64,000 nucleotides of DNA, taken from Nanobdellota archaeon (GTDB lineage Archaea; Nanobdellota; Nanobdellia; UBA10117; ARS21). Made by a program: the position numbers and the translations under genes. Positions 14,846-52,214 of the stretch are shown piece by piece (the first letter of the stretch is position 1; each line of letters starts with the position of its first letter). Location of the stretch: contig JAAZWY010000003.1 of the NCBI GenBank assembly GCA_014240455.1, positions 1,327-65,326 of the forward strand, read 5' to 3'. The notes beneath the pieces are model-generated. The model ran no database searches. It was given only the letters and a program-made list of their open reading frames with translations, and had not been told where the DNA came from.

Positions 14846-15571
14846 ATGCTAAACCTAGTAGGACTCGGATTAAGCTTGAAAGACATTTCAGTCAAAGGAA
14901 TCGAAGCTATAAACAAATCCGATGAAGTTTACATAGAAAGTTACACTTCTTTATCAGATTACACAATTAAAGAACTAGAATCTTTTCTTAAAAAAGAAAT
15001 AAAAATTCTACACCGTTCAGAAGTTGAAGAAGAAAAACCATTCTTCCAAAAAGACAAAAATATTACATTATTAATTTACGGAGATCCTTTATCTGCAACA
15101 ACTCACACAGAAATTTTACAAGAAGCAAAGAAACAAAATATAAAAACAAACATAATTCAAGCAGTATCAATTTTCACCGCAATTGCAAGAACAGGATTAC
15201 AATTATACAAGTTCGGAAAGACTGCATCAATTCCATTTTGGACTGAAAACTACAAACCAGAATCATTCTTTGATTTACTTGAACAAAATGCTTCAATCGG
15301 AGCACACACATTATTTTTACTAGATTTAAATCCAAAGGATAATAAGTTCCTATCAATCAAAGAAGCACTAGAAGTATTACAAAAAATAGCAGAAAAACGA
15401 AACTTTAAATTAACAAAAGCAATTGGCTGTGCACGTCTAGGATTGGAATCTGAAATAATCAAATATGATACAATTGAAAACCTCAAAAAACACGACTTTG
15501 GAAAAGCACCATTTTGCCTAATTTTGCCAGGCAAATTAAATTTCTCAGAAGAAGAATTTATTCCCAATTAA
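14846..15571 (+). CDS. dph5: diphthine synthase (Dph5)
   Basis: MLNLVGLGL..DISVKGIEAINKSDEVYIESYTS... tetrapyrrole-methylase fold typical of DphB. Confidence 0.85.
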   Translation: MLNLVGLGLSLKDISVKGIEAINKSDEVYIESYTSLSDYTIKELESFLKKEIKILHRSEVEEEKPFFQKDKNITLLIYGDPLSATTHTEILQEAKKQNIKTNIIQAVSIFTAIARTGLQLYKFGKTASIPFWTENYKPESFFDLLEQNASIGAHTLFLLDLNPKDNKFLSIKEALEVLQKIAEKRNFKLTKAIGCARLGLESEIIKYDTIENLKKHDFGKAPFCLILPGKLNFSEEEFIPN

Positions 15572-22373: not shown

Positions 22374-24629
22374 ATGGCTTCCAAAAATCCGTATCGAATT
22401 GTAGAAGAACCTGGTCAGAGAATTCTTGAGATTGATTATTCAAAAAATGTATTAACACCTTCAATTGAATCAAGCGAACCAGTTATGGCAGATACAATAA
22501 ACAAACTAATCAAAACTGGAAAGGTTTCTCAAATAATGTTCAAACAACAAGAAGATTACATTTATCCTCTTGATCAGACAACAATGCTATTAGAAATTGC
22601 AAACCTAATATCTGAATTCATAGATCGAACAAAACTACTATCTGAGGATTTCATAAAAGTTGCAGACGATACAAATCAATATTCAGACCGAATGGAATTT
22701 CTAAAATCTGCAATTAACTACGGATTAAGAGAAGATCCAATTGCATCATATCTAAGAGTAGTAACAAGATTACATTCTGAAAAAGCAAAGATGGATCTAA
22801 AAGACAATCTGAGAAAAGATTCACTACAAATATTTATCACAACTCTAGACACAATACGAGAACGACTAGAAACACTTTCCATACTAAAACTCGCTCAACC
22901 ATATCTACAAGAACACAAACCCGGAAGCAGAAAAATATATTCCAAGTTATTCAATCCAATAATAAAGCCAAATTTTCTCTATGCAAAATTAGTTACAAAA
23001 TTCCCAACTGGAGCTCAAGAATTAGATGCATACAAACTTCCGGACGGATCAAAAGTTGTAATCCTAAGATTACCTGATGAGATCAGACCAGTTTACCACC
23101 TAACACCTCCGGAATTTAATCTAACTGAAGATCGATATTCACTTTTAGGTGAAGCAAAAAGAATTGTGGCAGAACACAAACCACAACAATCAGAATTCAT
23201 AGATCCTCAAAGAACAAGAGAAATCTTCCAATCAGTAGAGCAAGATTTACTTCAAGATCTAAGTACTTCAAGAAGAGTCGAATTGAAAGATGGAGAAATT
23301 GAACAACTCGCACAGATTCTAGTAAGACACACGCTGGGTTTCGGACTGGCAGAAATAATCCTGGGAGATTCAAAAATCCAAGATATTTCAGTAAACGCAC
23401 CATCAAACCTAAATGAAATATCAGTTGTACATCAAGATCACGGAGAATGCATAACAAATATCACTCTAACAAACAAAGAAGTTGAAGGATGGGCAACAAA
23501 ACTCAGATTAATTAGTGGAAGACCTCTTGACGAGGCAAATCCAGTTCTTGATACAAGTCTAACTCTCGCAAATGCAATGGCAAGAGTATCAGCAATCCAA
23601 CCACCGCTTAGTCCTCAAGGATTAGCATTTTCATTCAGAAGACATAGAAGCAGGCCTTGGACTTTTCCATTATTCATAGAAAACAAAATGATGAATCCTC
23701 TGGCAGCAGCACTAATGAGTTTCTTAATCGACGGAGGAAGAACCATCCTGTTTGCAGGAACTCGTTCTTCAGGAAAGACTTCATTACTTTCTGCAGCAAT
23801 AGTAGAATTAATGCGATCTACTAGAATAATTACAGTCGAAGATACATTAGAACTCCCAATAACAAAATATCAAGATCTAAAATATGATATTCAATCCATG
23901 AAAGTTCAATCAGTAATAACTCAAGGAGAATCAGAATTAACTGCAACAGACGGAATCAGAACAAGTCTAAGACTTGGAGACTCAGCACTGATCGTAGGAG
24001 AAGTTCGTTCCAAAGAAGCAGTTGCATTATATGAAGCAATGAGAGTGGGAGCATTAGCAAACGTAGTCATGGGAACAATTCACGGAGATTCACCATATTC
24101 AATTTATGACAGAGTTGTAAACGATCTAGGAGTGCAAAAAACTTCATTCAAAGCAACAGATATAATTATAGTTTCAAATCCAGTAAAGTCCGCCTCAGGT
24201 ATTGGAAAACTAAGACGTGTAATTCAAATTTCAGAAGTTAGAAAAGAGTGGGAAGAGGATCCTCTAAGAGAACACGGGTTTGTAGACTTGATGGTTTATA
24301 ATCCAAAAACCGATACACTTGAACCAACCGATGCATTAATCCAAGGAGAAAGTGTTGTCCTAAAATCAATTGCATCAAGAGTTGCAGAATGGGTCGGTGA
24401 CTGGGACGCAGTTTGGGAAAACATCCAATTAAGAGCAAAAATAAAAGAAAAAATAGTTGAGCTCGGAAAAGAAAATCCAGAAATTCTAGAAGCAGAAATA
24501 ACTATCCAAGCCAATGACATGTTCCACAGAATTAGCGAAGACCTATTTGAAAAAGAAGGTCGTTCAGATCCAGAAAAAATCTATCAAGAATGGGAGGAAT
24601 GGCTGACTTCTAAACTCAGTAAATTATAA
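22374..24629 (+). CDS. type II/IV secretion ATPase (FlaI/GspE/VirB11 family), pilus or archaellum assembly ATPase
   Basis: Walker A GTRSSGKTS, Walker B-like ALIVGEVRSKEA, 751 aa with long N-terminal domain. Confidence 0.85.
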   Translation: MASKNPYRIVEEPGQRILEIDYSKNVLTPSIESSEPVMADTINKLIKTGKVSQIMFKQQEDYIYPLDQTTMLLEIANLISEFIDRTKLLSEDFIKVADDTNQYSDRMEFLKSAINYGLREDPIASYLRVVTRLHSEKAKMDLKDNLRKDSLQIFITTLDTIRERLETLSILKLAQPYLQEHKPGSRKIYSKLFNPIIKPNFLYAKLVTKFPTGAQELDAYKLPDGSKVVILRLPDEIRPVYHLTPPEFNLTEDRYSLLGEAKRIVAEHKPQQSEFIDPQRTREIFQSVEQDLLQDLSTSRRVELKDGEIEQLAQILVRHTLGFGLAEIILGDSKIQDISVNAPSNLNEISVVHQDHGECITNITLTNKEVEGWATKLRLISGRPLDEANPVLDTSLTLANAMARVSAIQPPLSPQGLAFSFRRHRSRPWTFPLFIENKMMNPLAAALMSFLIDGGRTILFAGTRSSGKTSLLSAAIVELMRSTRIITVEDTLELPITKYQDLKYDIQSMKVQSVITQGESELTATDGIRTSLRLGDSALIVGEVRSKEAVALYEAMRVGALANVVMGTIHGDSPYSIYDRVVNDLGVQKTSFKATDIIIVSNPVKSASGIGKLRRVIQISEVRKEWEEDPLREHGFVDLMVYNPKTDTLEPTDALIQGESVVLKSIASRVAEWVGDWDAVWENIQLRAKIKEKIVELGKENPEILEAEITIQANDMFHRISEDLFEKEGRSDPEKIYQEWEEWLTSKLSKL

Positions 24630-24631
24630 TT

Positions 24632-26656
24632 GTGGCAAACGAATTTGAAAAGCGACTAGAAAAAGCTGAAGGTACGTCGGAACAACAGCCACAAATATCT
24701 TACTCGCAAGCATATGAACAATTCAAAGCAGATCAAACAACTGCAATTACTTCAACTTACGAACGTGCAGCAAACTTCGCAGGAAAAATTCTAAAATTAA
24801 AAGTCAAAGAAGCAGACAGAGAAAAACTAGAGCGATACATACAAATGACTCACATGAATATCCAACCAGAGTATGTAAATTCTCTAGCACTACTTTCAGC
24901 AATTCCATTTCTGATCGCAGCAATTGCAACGTTCATCATTACAGACTCAATATTTTTCCCAGCACTTCTATTTGGCTCAGCAATATTTGCATTATATTAT
25001 TTTGCAAATACTCCAAAACACATATATGATTCTTGGAGAGCAAGAGCGTCAGACCAAATAATGCTTACTGTATTGTATATAGTCATTCACATGAAACGAG
25101 ATTCAAATCTCGAAAGAGCAATTTTGTTCGTAGCAAACCAAACAGCACCACCAATTTCATTAGATTTTATGAAAATTCTATGGGATTTTGAAACAAAAAA
25201 ATATAGCACAGTTCAAGAATCGCTTGATGTTTATTTGGAAACTTGGAAAGAATCAGAACCGGCATTTGTTGATGCCATGCATTTAGTAGAATCCTCCTTG
25301 GCTCAACCAAATTCAGAACAAGCAAGAAAAACATTGGATAAGGCCAATGATGTAATTACTCAAGGAATCCAAGATAACATGACTCACTTCGCGCACAATC
25401 TAAAAAACCCAGTACAAATGATTCACATGCTTGGAATCGTTCTTCCATTATTGATGCTTGTAATGCTTCCAATGATTGGTGCGTTCCTAGCAGATAGCAT
25501 TAATGCAGCACAGTTAATTACTATTTACAACGTAGTACTTCCAATATTCGTATTCATCACTGCGAGAAATATAATTGCAGTTCGGCCGGGCGGAGCAAGC
25601 GTACAAAACAAGCGATTAATTGAAGCAGCACCGAAAGCAGGAGCAAAACCGCTAGTATTCTCTGCAGCAGTATTTACAATAATTGTTCTACCTGCAATCT
25701 TAGTACTCGCATCAATAATAACTTCGGGAAACTGGGAAACATTAAAGTTTGAGAATTCAGTATTCTTTCTAACGCTCGCAATAATTTTTGCAACAGGTTT
25801 AGCAGCATATGTTTACTTCCATTTCAAAAATAAAGACTTAATTAAATTAAAAGGTAAGATTGAAAATATAGAAGATCAATTCTCCTCAGCAATATTCCAA
25901 CTTGGAAATAGAATCGGAGAAAACATTCCGGCAGAAGCAGCATTCGGACACGTAGCAGAAAACATGAAAGGTAGTGAAATAGCAAAATTCTTTGAAATAG
26001 TTGATTCAAATATACGACAGAGTGGAATGACTCTAGACGATGCAATTTTTGACCCAAAAAACGGAGCCAGTAATTTATACCCTTCAGAATTAATAGATTC
26101 TATCATGAAACTGCTCTTAGAAGCAGTTAAGAAAAGCCCAAAAGTGGCAGCAGAATCGATGACTTCTTTGTCAAAATACCTACAAAAAATGCATCAAGTT
26201 AAGGAAAGAATGACTGATTTGCTTTCAGATACACTTTCATCGATGAGAATGCAGGCCTCATTCCTCGCACCACTAGTTTCAGCACTAGTTGTAAGCCTTT
26301 CAGTACTAATAACTCGAGTATTAATGAATTTAACTTCTCAACTTGATACGCTCCAAACTTCAGGAACGGGAGATGCAGGACTTGGATTCGGAACAGGATT
26401 AGCCTCAATTTTCAAAGTTGAAGCGGCAATGCCTCCATATTTGTTACAATTAATGGTCGGATTTTATATAATTCAAGTAGTATTCTTGCTCAGCTATGCG
26501 CTCTCAGGAATTGTAAAGGGTCCAGGAAAGATAGATTTCCAATGGACTTTTTCTCAAAATATTCTAAGAAGTACGCTTCTCTACTGCGGACTAACATTAG
26601 TAGGAACAATAATATTCTCATCCCTAGCATTCATTGTAACAGCTGCAGTCGCATAA
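24632..26656 (+). CDS. FlaJ/TadC/GspF-family polytopic platform membrane protein
   Basis: 674 aa, two groups of TM helices separated by cytoplasmic domains, immediately downstream of ATPase. Confidence 0.8.
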   Translation: MANEFEKRLEKAEGTSEQQPQISYSQAYEQFKADQTTAITSTYERAANFAGKILKLKVKEADREKLERYIQMTHMNIQPEYVNSLALLSAIPFLIAAIATFIITDSIFFPALLFGSAIFALYYFANTPKHIYDSWRARASDQIMLTVLYIVIHMKRDSNLERAILFVANQTAPPISLDFMKILWDFETKKYSTVQESLDVYLETWKESEPAFVDAMHLVESSLAQPNSEQARKTLDKANDVITQGIQDNMTHFAHNLKNPVQMIHMLGIVLPLLMLVMLPMIGAFLADSINAAQLITIYNVVLPIFVFITARNIIAVRPGGASVQNKRLIEAAPKAGAKPLVFSAAVFTIIVLPAILVLASIITSGNWETLKFENSVFFLTLAIIFATGLAAYVYFHFKNKDLIKLKGKIENIEDQFSSAIFQLGNRIGENIPAEAAFGHVAENMKGSEIAKFFEIVDSNIRQSGMTLDDAIFDPKNGASNLYPSELIDSIMKLLLEAVKKSPKVAAESMTSLSKYLQKMHQVKERMTDLLSDTLSSMRMQASFLAPLVSALVVSLSVLITRVLMNLTSQLDTLQTSGTGDAGLGFGTGLASIFKVEAAMPPYLLQLMVGFYIIQVVFLLSYALSGIVKGPGKIDFQWTFSQNILRSTLLYCGLTLVGTIIFSSLAFIVTAAVA

Positions 26657-31202: not shown

Positions 31203-31735
31203 AAAAAGGAGACGCATTACTTACAATTGTTTTTAGTATAATTGGCGCAATCATGATTCTCATTATCGGAACTCATGTATTCTCAACAACACTAAATATC
31301 GTAGATGATGAAGCATTAGCAGTAACTTCAATGAGACAAATTGCAACAGCGGCAAATTCTGCAAAATCGTTTGACATTTGTGCATCAGCAGAACTAAATC
31401 TGGCAAGAAGTTATCAAATTATTGCAAAAGGTAACATGCTAGAATTATATGAACAGAAAATGGCAGAGGAAGAACCAACGCTAGTGGACAGCATAACCAT
31501 CAATTCAGAATCAAGAGTAATGTGTAATTATGATGATACTCCTCAATGTAGAAATGAACGGCAGTCAGCTGAACGAGGAATGTCAATAAATCCAAATTTC
31601 GATAGAGAAATAGATCAAGTATTTTGCGTTTGTAAATACGGAGCAATAGTTAACGGAAATCAAGATTTTATAGTATATCCAAAGTCTGGATGGGAACCAA
31701 CTTGTGATGATCCAGTAAGTAGTTATCAAGCATGA
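31199..31735 (+). CDS. class III signal peptide pilin-like protein
   Basis: MKKGD|ALLTIVFSIIGAIMILIIG. Confidence 0.65.
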   Translation: MKKGDALLTIVFSIIGAIMILIIGTHVFSTTLNIVDDEALAVTSMRQIATAANSAKSFDICASAELNLARSYQIIAKGNMLELYEQKMAEEEPTLVDSITINSESRVMCNYDDTPQCRNERQSAERGMSINPNFDREIDQVFCVCKYGAIVNGNQDFIVYPKSGWEPTCDDPVSSYQA

Positions 31736-33555
31736 AATTAAATAAACGAGGACAGGGAACAAACCTAGTTTTAATAGTCGGAGTTATACTGGCAACAGCA
31801 ATTTCAGTATTTGCAGTATATACAACTTTTGATGATGTAGTACAAAATATGGTAACTGGAGATCCAGAATTGGCAGCAAGAGAATTAGCGTCATATATGG
31901 ATATTGCATCCTCATCTCCAAATGAGATCACGATATATTCATCAACACCAATAACTGTTGCAGGATTTCCGGCATATGGAACTGTTTTATTTAACGCGGA
32001 AGACCGAGAAATCAGAGTACATCCATATCCTCAAGATTTAATGCAAGCTCAAATACTAAAAAGTATGTATGGAGAAATTTCAGCAGAGGAAGCTTATAGT
32101 GTAATGGCACTATATGGTTATCGAAGTAGCAATGTTGTTTTGAGAGCACAATCTAGATTAGCAGGAAGTATAGCTCAAGATTTGGGCGCAAGAGCTGCAA
32201 GAGATCAGGCACTGCGCGATGTACAAGAAGCACTTTCTGATGATTTCTTTGGAAATTTAGATATGATTGGAAGGGACGCAATATCTGACGCCGCTTACGA
32301 TCTCTCACCAACAAACGCGAAAAAATACTTAGATCTTGAAGAGAAATATGCCAACAAATTAGCAAAAAAACAAGCAAAAGCAATACGTGCGGCAAGAGCC
32401 GGATCAAGATTAAGTAAATTAAAAAGAGCGGCAGCATGGGTATGGCCACCAAGTCTAGCAAGAAAAGCAGTAACGGGTACATCATGGGTTTCAAGTAAAA
32501 TAGGACTCACCAAGTATGCTAGCGGAGTTGTAAGGAAACTAGAATCTAAAGCAGCTAGACGTGCAGCAGTAAAGGCAGAAAAAGCAGTTGCAAGAGGCGC
32601 ATCAGTTACAATAATGTTAGATATTGGTGAAACTGCAGAAGATGTTGCATGCGCAATCCCGACGCCACCTTCACAAGTAGTATGTAAGGCAAGTTCAGTA
32701 ATAAGGAGAGGAATATTTATGGTATTCATGTTAGCAGAAGGAGCGTGGACTTTCTGGCCAATACATCATTCAATAACTAATGCAAGAGATGCAACTGAAC
32801 AAATTGACGATAAATTCGGAACTTTCGAGTTTCATACTGGAAATATACCAATTCAAGCAGAATTACCTAATTGTGAAAGCGAACCTTATGCAGTAAATAT
32901 GGATTTACCGATGGGCGAAGCGCTAGAAGCAATAGGATTACAAGATATTCTAAGTGCACAAATGAATATGCCAATGTCCGAATCAACAGAGGAAATCAAA
33001 ACTTATTCAGGAATTAAAAATAGACAAAATGAATGTTTCGATTCACATAATTGGTATCTAGATGATGGCGGATTAATTACAGACATATTATTTCTGGACA
33101 ATTATGCAATAACGCATCCTTGGACTTTGGGCGTGGCAGCACCCTTCGCAGCATGTACTGGAATTGGAATTGTCAAGGAACCAAGCTCTGGAAGTTCATG
33201 TATTATGATGATGGAAGCAAGTCTACTTGGTGCATGGTCAAACCAAGAAAACTCATGGACTACTGGATGGAAAGAAAATTGGAAAGGAAACACTTTCATG
33301 CTCGCAATAACTGCAGCAATGGTAACTGGGAAACCAATAAAATTCTTCAAGAGTAAAGAAGGAGCAATAGCATTAGGGCTATACAATTTATTACCGATGG
33401 ATTCAGTAAACTTATTCTCCTACATTTCAGGAGCGGATGAATTAATAGATGCAGATAAAGAATATTATATGGAAGATCCATTAGTAATATCCATAAGCAA
33501 AGAATACGACGAGAGTTCAGATGAATACGTCTTGGTGGTGGACAAAGCAATATGA
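31732..33555 (+). CDS. 607-aa pilin-like protein (possible tip/adhesin) with basic Ala/Lys/Arg-rich segment
   Basis: MKLNKRGQ|GTNLVLIVGVILATAISVFAVY. Confidence 0.65.
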   Translation: MKLNKRGQGTNLVLIVGVILATAISVFAVYTTFDDVVQNMVTGDPELAARELASYMDIASSSPNEITIYSSTPITVAGFPAYGTVLFNAEDREIRVHPYPQDLMQAQILKSMYGEISAEEAYSVMALYGYRSSNVVLRAQSRLAGSIAQDLGARAARDQALRDVQEALSDDFFGNLDMIGRDAISDAAYDLSPTNAKKYLDLEEKYANKLAKKQAKAIRAARAGSRLSKLKRAAAWVWPPSLARKAVTGTSWVSSKIGLTKYASGVVRKLESKAARRAAVKAEKAVARGASVTIMLDIGETAEDVACAIPTPPSQVVCKASSVIRRGIFMVFMLAEGAWTFWPIHHSITNARDATEQIDDKFGTFEFHTGNIPIQAELPNCESEPYAVNMDLPMGEALEAIGLQDILSAQMNMPMSESTEEIKTYSGIKNRQNECFDSHNWYLDDGGLITDILFLDNYAITHPWTLGVAAPFAACTGIGIVKEPSSGSSCIMMMEASLLGAWSNQENSWTTGWKENWKGNTFMLAITAAMVTGKPIKFFKSKEGAIALGLYNLLPMDSVNLFSYISGADELIDADKEYYMEDPLVISISKEYDESSDEYVLVVDKAI

Positions 33556-36034: not shown

Positions 36035-37597
36035 ATGGTTAGATGGCTGAATGAAGTTTCAAAATCCAACACGGAAGAAGTTGGGGAGAAGGCAGCACTT
36101 TTGGGTGAGATGATTAAATTCGGTTTTCCAGTCCCACGTGGTTTTGTAATTTCTTACGATGAGTTTGATAAAGCCATGGTTGAGCTTGGACCAGAAATAC
36201 AATCAATTTTATCTATAGCAAATCCAGACAACTTCAACTCAATTCTTACAGCATCATCAAAAATAAAAGAACTATTCAAAAACTATCAATTTTCAAATGA
36301 TTTTGAAAGAGAAGTAAAAGATTATTATTCAAAACTTCACATTGATAAGAACGAATACGGAAATGTAAATTCTGACGCATTCAATTTCATCAAAGCAGGA
36401 AGGGAACTACCGTTTGTATCTGTCAGAGTTTCAAATGCATCATCAACACCAAAACATTATTCAACTTCATTAAACGTAAAACAAACTCAAGAAATTCTTT
36501 CAGCAATAAGAAAAGCATGGGCATCAATTTATTCACCATACTCTATTCTTTACCGAAGATCAAACAACTCACCCTTTCCAAGAGCAGCAATACTAATTCA
36601 GGAAATGATTAACTCATCAAAATCCGGAGATTTATTTTCAATAAATCCTATAACTGGAAACAAAGATCAGACTGTAATTCAAGGACGTTGGGGACTAAGT
36701 CTAAAAAGTTCTCCGGGAGCAAGCATATTTATTTGCGACAAACAATCATCAAAAATTCTAGAATCTTATGAATCAAAACCAACAAAATATTACACAAAAG
36801 ATCCGCAACATGGAAACACGGCAATAAGAACTCTTGAAGAAGAATTCAAAGACCTCCCAGTTTTAGGATCAAGAGAAGTAGAGTTACTAACAAGAATTGC
36901 AACAGATGCAGAAAACAAATTAGGTTTTCCAGTAAATATTGAATGGTCAATAGAAAAGAGAAAGTTTCATCTGATTCAAGTCAGACCAGCATCAAACTTT
37001 TTCAAAGGACCGGTATTTTCAAATCAGTTTCCAAACCAATTCGATAAAACAATGGCACGAGGATTACCTGCTTCACCAGGATTTGTTACAAATAAAACCG
37101 TAATAATAAATTCACCAAACGATTTTCACAAATTCCAACCAAACAATATTCTAATAACAGATTCTTTCAACGGACAAATACTTCCACTAATGCTTCAATC
37201 TTCAGGAGTAATTTTCAAGAATGAAGATCTTTCATCCTTCGGAGCAGTAATTGCAAGAGACTTTGAAAAGCCATGTATAGTAAAAGCCAAAATAGACATC
37301 AGTTCAGACCTTGAGCAAGCAGAATTAAACGCATCAACTGGAAAGTTATACGGACCGGAGCAAGCTACAGAAACTCAATTTGAATCCGAAGAATCAACTG
37401 AGACAATAAACTTGGAAGGAATATACAAAAGTCTGGAGGAAGTAGAGCGAGAGCTAACGACACTAAATGCACAATTAACTGAAGCAAGAAGTCAAAATCT
37501 CCTATCGGAATCAGACAGAGAAAAGTCAAAACTAATTTCAGATTTAGAATGGGAAGTAAGAGAACTAAAAGAAAAACTTAGTCGGCATCTACAGTAA
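36035..37597 (+). CDS. PEP synthase/PPDK-like protein (ATP-grasp N-domain + swivel-like domain), catalytic His absent, C-terminal coiled coil
   Basis: VGEKAALLGEM..GFPVPRGFVI nucleotide-binding motif; swivel region reads LSSFGAVIARDFEKPCIV where canonical TxHAAIxARExGIPxVVG has His (F in place of H); no PEP/pyruvate TIM-barrel domain. Confidence 0.65.
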   Translation: MVRWLNEVSKSNTEEVGEKAALLGEMIKFGFPVPRGFVISYDEFDKAMVELGPEIQSILSIANPDNFNSILTASSKIKELFKNYQFSNDFEREVKDYYSKLHIDKNEYGNVNSDAFNFIKAGRELPFVSVRVSNASSTPKHYSTSLNVKQTQEILSAIRKAWASIYSPYSILYRRSNNSPFPRAAILIQEMINSSKSGDLFSINPITGNKDQTVIQGRWGLSLKSSPGASIFICDKQSSKILESYESKPTKYYTKDPQHGNTAIRTLEEEFKDLPVLGSREVELLTRIATDAENKLGFPVNIEWSIEKRKFHLIQVRPASNFFKGPVFSNQFPNQFDKTMARGLPASPGFVTNKTVIINSPNDFHKFQPNNILITDSFNGQILPLMLQSSGVIFKNEDLSSFGAVIARDFEKPCIVKAKIDISSDLEQAELNASTGKLYGPEQATETQFESEESTETINLEGIYKSLEEVERELTTLNAQLTEARSQNLLSESDREKSKLISDLEWEVRELKEKLSRHLQ

Positions 37598-37947: not shown

Positions 37948-38268
37948 ATGAAGAAATTTGATTATCATCAATATGTTTCAATGACTGTAATAATTGTGGC
38001 ATTACTAATAATTACATTCTTTGTGTTTGGACCAAATGCGAATTTCTTCCAAGGATTTGATACACCGATTGATTGTGATAACATTCCCGATGCAACAAAC
38101 GCAGTTACTTTCTACAAAAATGCAGACACAGATAATGATGGATTAAGTGATTACAATGAATGCATCTTCGGAACAAATCCAGCAGTTGCAGACACTGATG
38201 GAGATCACAAATCTGACGGAAAAGAAGTAAATGCAAGATTCCCAACAGATCCTTTAACAGTAAATTAA
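37948..38268 (+). CDS. membrane-anchored thrombospondin-type-3-like Ca-binding repeat protein (small paralog of 12959 gene)
   Basis: TM then NADTDNDGLSDYNECIFGTNPAVADTDGDHKSDGKEV. Confidence 0.5.
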   Translation: MKKFDYHQYVSMTVIIVALLIITFFVFGPNANFFQGFDTPIDCDNIPDATNAVTFYKNADTDNDGLSDYNECIFGTNPAVADTDGDHKSDGKEVNARFPTDPLTVN

Positions 38269-38311
38269 GCCAAATAAAAACACTTTTAACCAAACTTCAA
38301 ACACTAAGACT

Positions 38312-38578
38312 ATGATCGAGAAATATGATATCGAGGTTCAGAAGATTGTCGACGAAGCAAAGAAAATCGAAGCAAAGACAATTGTAATTCAACTACCTGA
38401 CGGTCTCAAAAATGACGCAACAAAACTTCAAACTCAATTAGAAGAATTAACTGGAGCAACAATAGTTTTCTGGGCAGGTTCAAATTTCGGAGCATGCGAC
38501 ATTCCAACAAATTTACCAAAAGAATACGATATGTTGGTGGCAATCGGTCATGCGTTTGCGTACAACATTAAAGATTGA
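38312..38578 (+). CDS. dph2: Dph2 N-terminal domain (2-(3-amino-3-carboxypropyl)histidine synthase), split gene part 1
   Basis: YDIEVQKIVDEAKKIEAKTIVIQLPDGLK...FWAGSNFGACDIP...VAIGH matches first Cys-bearing domain of archaeal Dph2; ends TGA at 38576-38578. Confidence 0.65.
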   Translation: MIEKYDIEVQKIVDEAKKIEAKTIVIQLPDGLKNDATKLQTQLEELTGATIVFWAGSNFGACDIPTNLPKEYDMLVAIGHAFAYNIKD

Positions 38579-38620
38579 ATTCTACAAAACCTTTAAATAA
38601 AATCACCCTTAAGACTAGTT

Positions 38621-38914
38621 ATGGCTTTTCTAGGAATGGAAGGAACACTTGGAACCGGAATCGGTCTCCTCCTAGGATTAGCGTTGCTTAAGTATAGCGG
38701 ATATGTTGATGCTGTACGAAAGGAGCTTAGTTATATCGCGGCTGGTGCAATGTTTTTGCTACTTAGCTCAGTGACTGGAACTGGGCTTGACGGAATTGCA
38801 GGCTTCGAACAAGCCATTCTTTACATAAATATAATTTTTGTAGTAGTTGCATTCCTGTTAACGTTAATCGGTGCATTGTTAATGGCAGTGCAAATATTTT
38901 CAAAGATCAGATAA
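38621..38914 (+). CDS. small 3-TM membrane protein inserted between the Dph2 halves
   Basis: 97 aa hydrophobic ORF with its own terminator hairpin. Confidence 0.45.
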   Translation: MAFLGMEGTLGTGIGLLLGLALLKYSGYVDAVRKELSYIAAGAMFLLLSSVTGTGLDGIAGFEQAILYINIIFVVVAFLLTLIGALLMAVQIFSKIR

Positions 38915-38940
38915 ACTCTGATCTTTGTTTTTCTTTTTTG
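38903..38940 (+). terminator. hairpin + T-tract
   Basis: aagatcag-ataaact-ctgatctt then tgtttttcttttttg; stop codon lies in loop. Confidence 0.5.
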
Positions 38941-39016
38941 AATATTATTTTTAGTCAACGTTTTTTTCAAAAAGGCTGTTCGAAACCCTTTTAATCCGAA
39001 AACTTGCCCACAAACT

Positions 39017-39766
39017 ATGAGAACTCTATTTATTGAGGCATACATAAAAGAAGATCTTGAACCACTTTTAGATAATATAATCAAGACAGTAAAAGAAAAT
39101 AAAATTGGATTAGTAACCACAGTTCAACATATCAAAAATCTCGAAAAAGCAAAAGAGTATCTTGAGAAAGCAGGAAAGAATGTTCATGTCGGAACTCCGG
39201 CAAAGAACCTCAAACCAAAACAAGGAATATACGCATTCCATCCAGGTCAACTTTTAGGTTGCGACGCATCAGCAGCAATCGATATCGAAGAAGATGTAGA
39301 TGCTTTCATATTCTTGGGAACGGGAGAATTCCATCCTTTATTCATCGCATTCAATTCAGAGAAACCAATTTGGCTAGCAAACCCGCTAACTCAAACAGTA
39401 GAACTTCTTCCAGAGGAACGCAGACGAAAATTCTTTGCAAAACAAGCAGCAAGAATGCATCACGCAGAAGAATCCAAATGCTACGGAATAATCGTATCAA
39501 CCAAACCAGGTCAAGTATATTTGAATATGGCAAAACGGATGAAAGAACAAGCAGAAAAACTCGGTAAAAAGGCAGTAATCCTTCTTTCAGATACCATTAC
39601 TCCAAACGATTTGATGAATTATCACGAAGTAGATTGTTTTGTTAATACGGCATGCCCAAGAATCGTCGAAGACCAACCCTTCTATCCAAAAACAATGGTG
39701 AATGGCACCGAATTAAAGCAGATTTTCAACAAGCTAAGCGCTGAAACCAAAGCAAAATCTTTATAA
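39017..39766 (+). CDS. dph2: Dph2 domains 2-3, split gene part 2
   Basis: LLGCDASA and NTACPRI Cys motifs of Dph2 [4Fe-4S] domains 2 and 3. Confidence 0.7.
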   Translation: MRTLFIEAYIKEDLEPLLDNIIKTVKENKIGLVTTVQHIKNLEKAKEYLEKAGKNVHVGTPAKNLKPKQGIYAFHPGQLLGCDASAAIDIEEDVDAFIFLGTGEFHPLFIAFNSEKPIWLANPLTQTVELLPEERRRKFFAKQAARMHHAEESKCYGIIVSTKPGQVYLNMAKRMKEQAEKLGKKAVILLSDTITPNDLMNYHEVDCFVNTACPRIVEDQPFYPKTMVNGTELKQIFNKLSAETKAKSL

Positions 39767-52096: not shown

Positions 52097-52214
52097 ATGC
52101 CAGCAGCTTTCCCGCTTTCCCGCCATTAGGCAGTACCGACGAGTACGTGAAACAGCTTAACTTCCGTGTTCGGAAAGGGAACGGGTGTGACCTGTTTGCT
52201 GTGACCGCTGACAA
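52097..52214 (-). rRNA. 5S ribosomal RNA
   Basis: minus-strand read contains ...ACACCCGTTCCCTTTCCGAACACGGAAGTTAAGCTG...GTACTGCC...; terminal helix TGTCAGCGG/CTGCTGGCA; ends +/- 3 nt. Confidence 0.8.

Follow-up and report, generated by a model that had tools for sequence, protein, structure and literature searches.

Split Dph2 in archaea

The archaeal diphthamide synthase Dph2 is canonically a single-chain protein that forms a homodimer, as represented by the structures of Pyrococcus horikoshii (3LZD) and Candidatus Methanoperedens (6BXM) and by 6Q2D. In the P. horikoshii protein (PhDph2), the Fe-S cluster is ligated by Cys-59, which lies in a Cys-Asp motif, Cys-163 and Cys-287 (PMC11048331). 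A two-gene form of this enzyme has been described in DPANN archaea: a split DPH2 was reported in the nanoarchaeon Nst1 (genes Nst 222-440; Podar et al., 2013, PMC3655853), split Dph1/2 genes were found in several DPANN genomes and warned against as marker genes (Narrowe et al., 2018, PMC6143161), and the split was later recorded in Parvarchaeota, Pacearchaeota, Woesearchaeota and Altiarchaeota (Dombrowski et al., 2019, PMC6349945). These three papers report the existence of the two genes only, and describe neither their order nor any intervening gene. Here, we analysed a dph2 locus in a 64-kb stretch of DNA from a Nanobdellota archaeon (the whole stretch is referred to as the window, and all positions are window coordinates), in which the N-terminal and C-terminal parts of Dph2 are encoded by separate genes, dph2-N and dph2-C, with a gene for a small membrane protein (S) between them.

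We consider it very probable that this locus carries the DPANN-type split dph2, which arose through an old, lineage-wide gene fission and both genes of which have been kept by selection. The core phenomenon is already known as a published trait of this lineage. What is new here is modest: the graded series of arrangements (halves abutting, one gene between them, several between them, or fully unlinked) that share a common breakpoint, and an unnamed and highly conserved family of three-helix membrane proteins that keeps beside dph2-N.

A complete Dph2 encoded by two genes

The two genes lie on the same strand and in order. dph2-N (38312..38578, +) encodes an 88-aa N-terminal piece and ends at a TGA stop codon, and dph2-C (39017..39766, +) encodes a 249-aa C-terminal piece; both were recognized as open reading frames (ORFs) with a Dph2 family match, and the 438 nt between them hold the S gene. 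Separate N-terminal and C-terminal genes are the hallmark of DPANN split Dph1/2, and the presence of two ORFs is the defining deviation of that form from the canonical single chain. The next enzyme of the pathway, diphthine synthase, is encoded by an intact dph5 in the same window (14846..15571, +), which was assigned by the TIGR00522 equivalog model (249 bits against a cut-off of 114.3, residues 1-238 covered). An earlier note on this DNA, made from the letters alone, had read the 88-aa piece with its TGA end, the C-terminal piece with two Cys and an intact Dph5 at 14846; the coordinates of both pieces agree exactly with ours, both Cys align to ligands and Dph5 was confirmed.

In searches with Dph2 family models, dph2-N matched PF01866 over positions 1-57 (34.4 bits, cut-off 33.2, E 2e-8) and TIGR00322 over positions 1-84 (58.5 bits, cut-off 35, E 7e-16), and dph2-C matched PF01866 over positions 64-296 of 302 (175.9 bits, E 2e-51), so that the pieces together give the whole-length match expected of the family (PF01866, TIGR00322, TIGR03682 and arCOG04112). 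On the Ca. Methanoperedens protein (6bxm), dph2-N covers residues 4-84 and dph2-C begins at residue 92. The concatenated pieces aligned as a single HMMER domain on 6bxm, 6q2d and 3lzc (E 1e-55 to 3e-37), with a junction gap of 2 residues against the first and 0 against the other two. Because N and C align as one continuous domain with a gap of 0-2, no Dph2 residues are missing at the junction.

The three Cys expected to hold the [4Fe-4S] cluster are distributed over the two pieces. C62 of the N-piece (38495-38497, GACD motif) aligns to PhDph2 Cys-59, whereas C82 (39260-39262, LGCD motif) and C213 (39653-39655, ACPR motif) of the C-piece align to Cys-163 and Cys-287, respectively. C62 and the adjacent D63 are invariant among 39 diverse N-pieces; C82 and C213 are invariant in 84/84 stand-alone C-pieces, among which the remaining two Cys of the window C-piece are variable. 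The earlier note had proposed an alignment to P. horikoshii Dph2 as a check, and this alignment has all three Cys in place and no residues missing.

Some results give the proposed two-polypeptide enzyme less support. Taken singly, the pieces stay under the 202.8-bit threshold of the TIGR03682 equivalog model (56.6 for N and 189.8 for C), although the summed score of 246.4 bits is above it. An AlphaFold2 (AF2) model of the concatenated pieces made without an alignment had a mean confidence (pLDDT) of 41 and was unusable for placing the break in the fold. Of the wider pathway, neither EF-2 nor Dph6 is encoded within the 64 kb of the window.

Conservation and selection of the two genes

Where synonymous sites were unsaturated, the ratio of nonsynonymous to synonymous substitution rates (dN/dS) was 0.05-0.25 for dph2-N and 0.06-0.19 for dph2-C, which indicates strong purifying selection on both pieces. 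The 88-aa N protein is present on at least 24 contigs. In contigs assembled separately (NCBI, JGI with two samples, and ENA), N, small ORF and C had the same order and the same flanking genes, and the N-S-C layout was also found in dozens of metagenome contigs. The two-gene Dph2 is neither damage nor an artefact, and its conservation strongly favours an enzyme that works from two polypeptides, as far as can be judged from sequence comparison.

One alternative is that dph2 is a decaying pseudogene, disrupted by an insertion in an organism that has lost diphthamide. Such decay would agree with an interrupted gene whose pieces each fall under the TIGR03682 cut-off. It is nevertheless most improbable, given that the residues are complete and the ligands intact, that both pieces are under strong purifying selection, that the same two ORFs are kept across hundreds of species and that Dph5 is retained. 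The earlier note had left the choice between a Dph2 acting from two polypeptides and a disrupted one; on the evidence of conservation and dN/dS the former is supported, and the latter is contradicted by the intact pieces, their selection and the retained Dph5.

The same note had also considered an assembly error, and a chimeric join or a frameshift error in a contiguous gene could in principle produce such a split. No support for this was found, and the identical N-S-C arrangement in the independent NCBI, JGI and ENA assemblies and in the metagenome contigs, together with the same break in relatives, leaves it with practically no probability.

It could also be supposed that the halves are rejoined after transcription or translation, by a bulge-helix-bulge intron containing S, by trans-splicing, by a split intein or by recoding of the TGA. 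Archaeal mRNA introns and split inteins do occur among DPANN relatives. However, the lengths of the pieces add up to a normal Dph2 with no intein-sized extra, pairing across the junction was no better than in shuffled sequence (z = -0.4), and in most relatives more than 10 kb separates the halves. A TAA is met a few codons past the TGA of dph2-N, and therefore readthrough cannot join N and C. A split intein and an intron-interrupted gene were rejected on the absence of extra residues and on a junction duplex energy like that of the shuffles, and we regard rejoining in any of these forms as having hardly any likelihood.

Distribution and breakpoint of the split

The N-piece had 226 homologues in a database search, and the top 120 were nearly all 82-92 aa long. 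With the C-piece, 88 of the top 120 homologues were shorter than 261 aa; many stand-alone proteins of 218-260 aa ranked before the full-length ones (298-354 aa), which begin at ~41% identity. From GTDB species genomes, we then took the 80 closest loci of the N-piece together with their 10-kb flanks and classified them by hidden Markov models (HMMs) for the N-piece, the C-piece and S. Full-length dph2 was found in 0/80 species. The most frequent class was N alone with no C-piece within the flanks (52/80), followed by abutting halves with a gap of 2-139 nt (10/80), which often have only 2-5 nt from stop to start and no intervening gene (e.g. locus L009). The N-S-C arrangement of the window was present in 7/80 species, other sequence between the halves in 4/80 and N-S without C in 1/80, and in the remaining 6/80 the sequence was too short to class.

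Every split gene that was aligned, those of four divergent lineages included, breaks at one and the same column, in an alignment that left out the Nst1, Parvarchaeota and Altiarchaeota sequences. The break is in the linker that follows the GH motif and precedes the F(I/L)(E/D)A beta-strand (LFIEA). Neighbor-joining (NJ) trees were built from N only (84 columns) and from N and C together (304 columns), and in the latter the split dph2 genes were monophyletic with respect to full-length ones in 99/100 bootstraps. Because of the shared break column and this monophyly, the data fit a single old fission, after which the halves would have stayed together, become separated by insertions or dispersed. 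The earlier note had advised looking for the same split in relatives, and hundreds of relatives have the same break.

The closest genome match, at 98% identity, is a metagenome-assembled genome (MAG) labelled 'Candidatus Woesearchaeota', and the other close matches bear the labels Woese-, Pace- or Nanoarchaeota; these are depositors' labels, and on them the lineage agrees with the list of split-bearing DPANN groups in PMC6349945. The window locus therefore resembles DPANN split Dph1/2 in enzyme, two-gene layout and lineage labels, and it shares the breakpoint of the split relatives that were aligned. It differs in that the halves flank a conserved small membrane-protein gene, as they also do in one clade, and in that they are linked, whereas those of Nst1 and of most surveyed relatives are unlinked. 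A similar comparison can be made with the other split genes of Nanoarchaeum equitans and Nst1 (reverse gyrase, alanyl-tRNA synthetase (AlaRS), RNA polymerase B and others; PMC3655853), where housekeeping genes of reduced DPANN genomes have likewise been divided at inter-domain linkers and both halves, which presumably assemble, have been kept. In those cases the halves are as a rule dispersed over the genome, whereas the window halves are ordered on one strand, 438 nt apart.

During the survey, one pair (L098/P0195) was suspected of combining a free N-piece with a full-length Dph2 in one genome; P0195 proved to be an ordinary full-length gene on another contig. We also noticed that many GTDB genomes with a DPANN-type N-piece were deposited as 'uncultured Methanosarcinales archaeon' (binchicken co-assemblies) and one as 'Candidatus Aminicenantes bacterium'. 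These bins are probably mislabelled or contaminated.

A proposed Dph2 protomer built from two polypeptides

We propose that fission in the linker that joins the GH motif to the following beta-strand gave rise to dph2-N and dph2-C, whose 88-aa and 249-aa products would associate non-covalently and rebuild one Dph2 protomer. The [4Fe-4S] cluster would be held by Cys62 of the N-piece together with Cys82 and Cys213 of the C-piece, and two protomers would pair like the archaeal Dph2 homodimer into an (N+C)2 enzyme. This enzyme is expected to cleave S-adenosylmethionine (SAM) and to move the 3-amino-3-carboxypropyl group onto the diphthamide histidine of EF-2, after which Dph5, encoded in the same window, would methylate the product.

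Compared with the single-chain archaeal enzyme, the window pieces are colinear with the whole chain and retain all three Cys ligands as well as the Cys-Asp motif (PMC11048331). The differences are that the chain is divided into two polypeptides, so that the Fe-S cluster would be ligated across a subunit interface, and that the window C-piece has a clade-specific insertion of 8-10 residues before the second Cys. Eukaryotic Dph1-Dph2 also catalyses the first step of diphthamide synthesis by an enzyme of two gene products. However, eukaryotic Dph1 and Dph2 are full-length paralogues of three domains each, whereas the window products are complementary fragments of one protomer and hence not 'heterodimer-like' in the eukaryotic sense. 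The earlier note had used this term.

It follows from the split that Cys of two polypeptides would ligate a radical-SAM-type [4Fe-4S] cluster, and we found no reconstitution of such a two-polypeptide cluster in the literature. For practical purposes, split Dph2 is an unreliable single-copy marker, and automated annotation tends to call its pieces 'partial' or 'hypothetical', consequences that have been noted in the literature. The details given here are not surprising and should be useful for studies of DPANN genome evolution.

The small membrane protein between the halves

The S gene (38621..38914, +) encodes a protein of 97 aa with three predicted helices, and members of its family are 90-97 aa long; S contains neither Cys nor His. 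The AF2 model based on the family alignment had a pLDDT of 81.7 and helices at residues 3-24, 29-55 and 63-95. The family has 22 invariant alignment columns, and the signature LLKYSGY..KEL..QIFSK, whose three parts include such columns, is near-invariant. By the positive-inside rule, the predicted topology would place the invariant loop in the cytoplasm. The 97-aa, three-helix membrane ORF that the earlier note had described between the pieces was thus recovered, as was a terminator-like hairpin, which it had ascribed to this ORF.

No Pfam family matched S, and a Foldseek search of its model against PDB gave no neighbour with E <1. We considered whether S could be a MARVEL protein (PF01284), to which 10/31 family members had weak sub-threshold matches (best E 1.3e-4); the window S had no match and its model has three helices against the four required, and this assignment was rejected. 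Homologues of S form 44 clusters in a collection of 5.8 billion proteins, and an exhaustive profile search of 1.84 billion proteins returned 26 representatives only, three of which are giant repeat proteins and were discarded as spurious, compositional matches. Apart from these giants, the remote-homologue profile search found the same narrow family alone. The S family is narrow, limited to a single DPANN clade and confined to far fewer genomes than the split. With dN/dS of 0-0.14, S is under tighter constraint than either dph2-N or dph2-C.

Synteny was counted from a metagenome search with S alone, which retrieved 80 loci, with evaluable subsets that vary between counts. dph2-N lies within 1.5 kb upstream of S and on the same strand in 54/56 loci with enough upstream sequence. 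S occurs in two layouts, either N-S-C or N-S'-S with tandem paralogues, in which the C-piece lies 3-5 kb downstream or past the flank. The locus belongs to a block in the order PEP-synthase-like (PEP, phosphoenolpyruvate) gene, DUF357, dph2-N, S, dph2-C and rpoL: DUF357 is upstream of dph2-N in 44/53 loci, the PEP-synthase-like gene is present in 32/38 and rpoL follows dph2-C in 25/28. The S-C junction is often broken, with C immediately after S in 22/59 loci. Other genes also occupy the N-C interval, such as, between N and S in L116, one for a secreted-like protein of 313 aa, a 126-aa ORF (L006) and a gene for an 837-aa protein (L125).

In one sub-clade, S paralogues that are 27-39% identical to the window S stand in tandem directly after dph2-N (L017, 3042-3332 and 3501-3788; L019, 3093-3380 and 3501-3788; and many of L122-L175). 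In this sub-clade, the C-piece comes only after a very large surface-protein gene, 3-5 kb downstream.

Candidate expression signals

Among the 83 genes of the window, 20 have the motif CTTT[AT]{1,3}A with its start between -32 and -28 relative to the ATG, compared with ~2 expected by chance, and it is nearly absent at other upstream positions. All three genes of the locus have such a TATA/BRE-like motif (BRE, B recognition element) as a putative promoter: CTTTTAA at 38283..38289 (+), at -29 from the ATG of dph2-N; CTTTAAA at 38591..38597 (+), at -30 from the ATG of S and within the 42-nt spacer 3' of the dph2-N stop codon; and CTTTTAA at 38988..38994 (+), at -29 from the ATG of dph2-C. Its sharp positioning implies that 5' leaders are very short or absent in this organism. 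A candidate terminator, which comprises a hairpin and a T-run (38901..38937, +), follows S; the hairpin itself (38901-38927) has an 11-bp stem and a 5-nt loop that contains the S stop codon, and it is followed by TTTTTCTTTT. Termination of archaeal transcription at oligo-T is established. The motif before each gene, together with the hairpin and T-run after S, suggests that dph2-N, S and dph2-C are three separate, near-leaderless transcription units. The same motif was seen at other sites in the window, e.g. 16901, 19191, 20120, 39791, 40080, 41284 and 42204.

Relationship between S and the split

Since neighbouring pairs of the block are similarly syntenic and other genes have entered the N-C interval, S is most likely a long-resident passenger in a permissive spacer and not a Dph2 subunit. 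As a probably independently transcribed gene, it would most likely have entered the spacer between already separated halves and then stayed beside dph2-N within a slowly decaying syntenic block. Some observations speak against such a passenger: the adjacency of S and dph2-N persists where dph2-C has moved 3-5 kb away, and S is more conserved than either Dph2 piece, as a functional link would predict too.

S might accordingly be a functional partner of the split Dph2, such as a membrane anchor or an assembly factor that binds the N-piece via the LLKYSGY..KEL loop, with the N-S linkage selected rather than inherited. The near-constant position of dph2-N upstream of S in the loci retrieved with S alone, the survival of this linkage after displacement of dph2-C, the strongest constraint among the three genes and the tandem duplication of S in place would all agree with such a role. 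On the other hand, adjacent pairs of the same block are conserved nearly as much (83-89%), in most genomes with split Dph2 the N-piece has no S in its vicinity, a promoter-like motif precedes S itself and other genes can separate N and S, as in L116. S also has no Cys or His and no recognizable domain beyond the sub-threshold MARVEL matches, and it lacks a structural neighbour with E <1. We therefore consider a partner role unlikely.

The title of the earlier note held that the insertion of the membrane-protein gene had split Dph2. In its explicit form, this means that an S cassette with its own promoter and terminator was inserted into the inter-domain linker of Dph2 in the ancestor of the split genes, and that abutting and unlinked arrangements came later, through loss of S or rearrangement. 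S does sit precisely in the gap and is co-oriented with both halves, and it comes with a promoter-like motif and a terminator-like hairpin of its own. The N+C tree also points in this direction and against S as a later arrival, with N-S-C loci as the earliest branches and the abutting clade nested inside the S-bearers (S monophyly 1/100), which would make S ancestral. However, the N-only tree places S-bearing loci in one nested clade, with weak bootstrap support (14/88), and the insertion of 8-10 residues before the second Cys of the C-piece is present in all 32 N-S-C loci and absent from full-length and abutting genes and from those in N-x-C and N-SS..C arrangements, which contradicts the N+C topology. 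The conflicting NJ placements do not settle the order of split and S arrival, and we therefore regard the causal claim as unsupported rather than refuted.

Other evidence also bears on this order. The same break column is found in S-free relatives, both with halves abutting at 2-5 nt and with halves more than 10 kb apart, and stop-to-start gaps of 2-5 nt are much more readily explained by a frameshift or point mutation than by the exact excision of S. Reports of the split extend to other DPANN phyla (PMC3655853, PMC6349945), whereas S occurs in far fewer genomes than the split, with just 26 representatives in 1.84 billion proteins. Because of the 2-5 nt spacing, the narrower distribution of S and the split in other DPANN phyla, fission first and S later is favoured, and fission caused by S appears improbable, if slightly less so than a partner role. 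It is likewise doubtful, to about the same degree as that role, that S is either a dedicated tether or assembly partner of the split enzyme or the surviving footprint of the insertion that made the fission. If either were true, the locus would be a model for how an Fe-S radical-SAM enzyme can be fragmented while it remains functional.

Neighboring genes in the window

Several other features of the window were recorded. The PEP-synthase-like gene (36035-37597, +) encodes 520 aa with PPDK_N and PEP-utilizers domains and matches PEP synthase models over ~1-450 of ~790 residues, whereas the distant relatives L017 and L019 have PEP-synthase-like proteins of 762-771 aa that additionally contain PEP-utilizers_C. 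It may be another truncated or split gene of this clade. Directly upstream of dph2-N, a gene at 37948-38268 (+) encodes a small secreted protein that contains a calcium-binding repeat of the bacterial TSP3 type; in relatives at ~50% identity, this slot holds a gene for a 249-aa CARDB-domain protein.

A 751-aa FlaI/VirB11-type secretion ATPase is encoded at 22374-24629 (+) and is followed, up to ~35277, by large ORFs on the same strand that have no family matches (e.g. 24845-26656 and 31732-33555). This run may represent a pilus- or archaellum-like surface-structure operon. Finally, the window contains a stand-alone 5S rRNA gene (52098-52212, -), which is not beside a 16S or 23S gene, and six scattered tRNA genes, none of which is flagged by ARAGORN as split or intron-containing.

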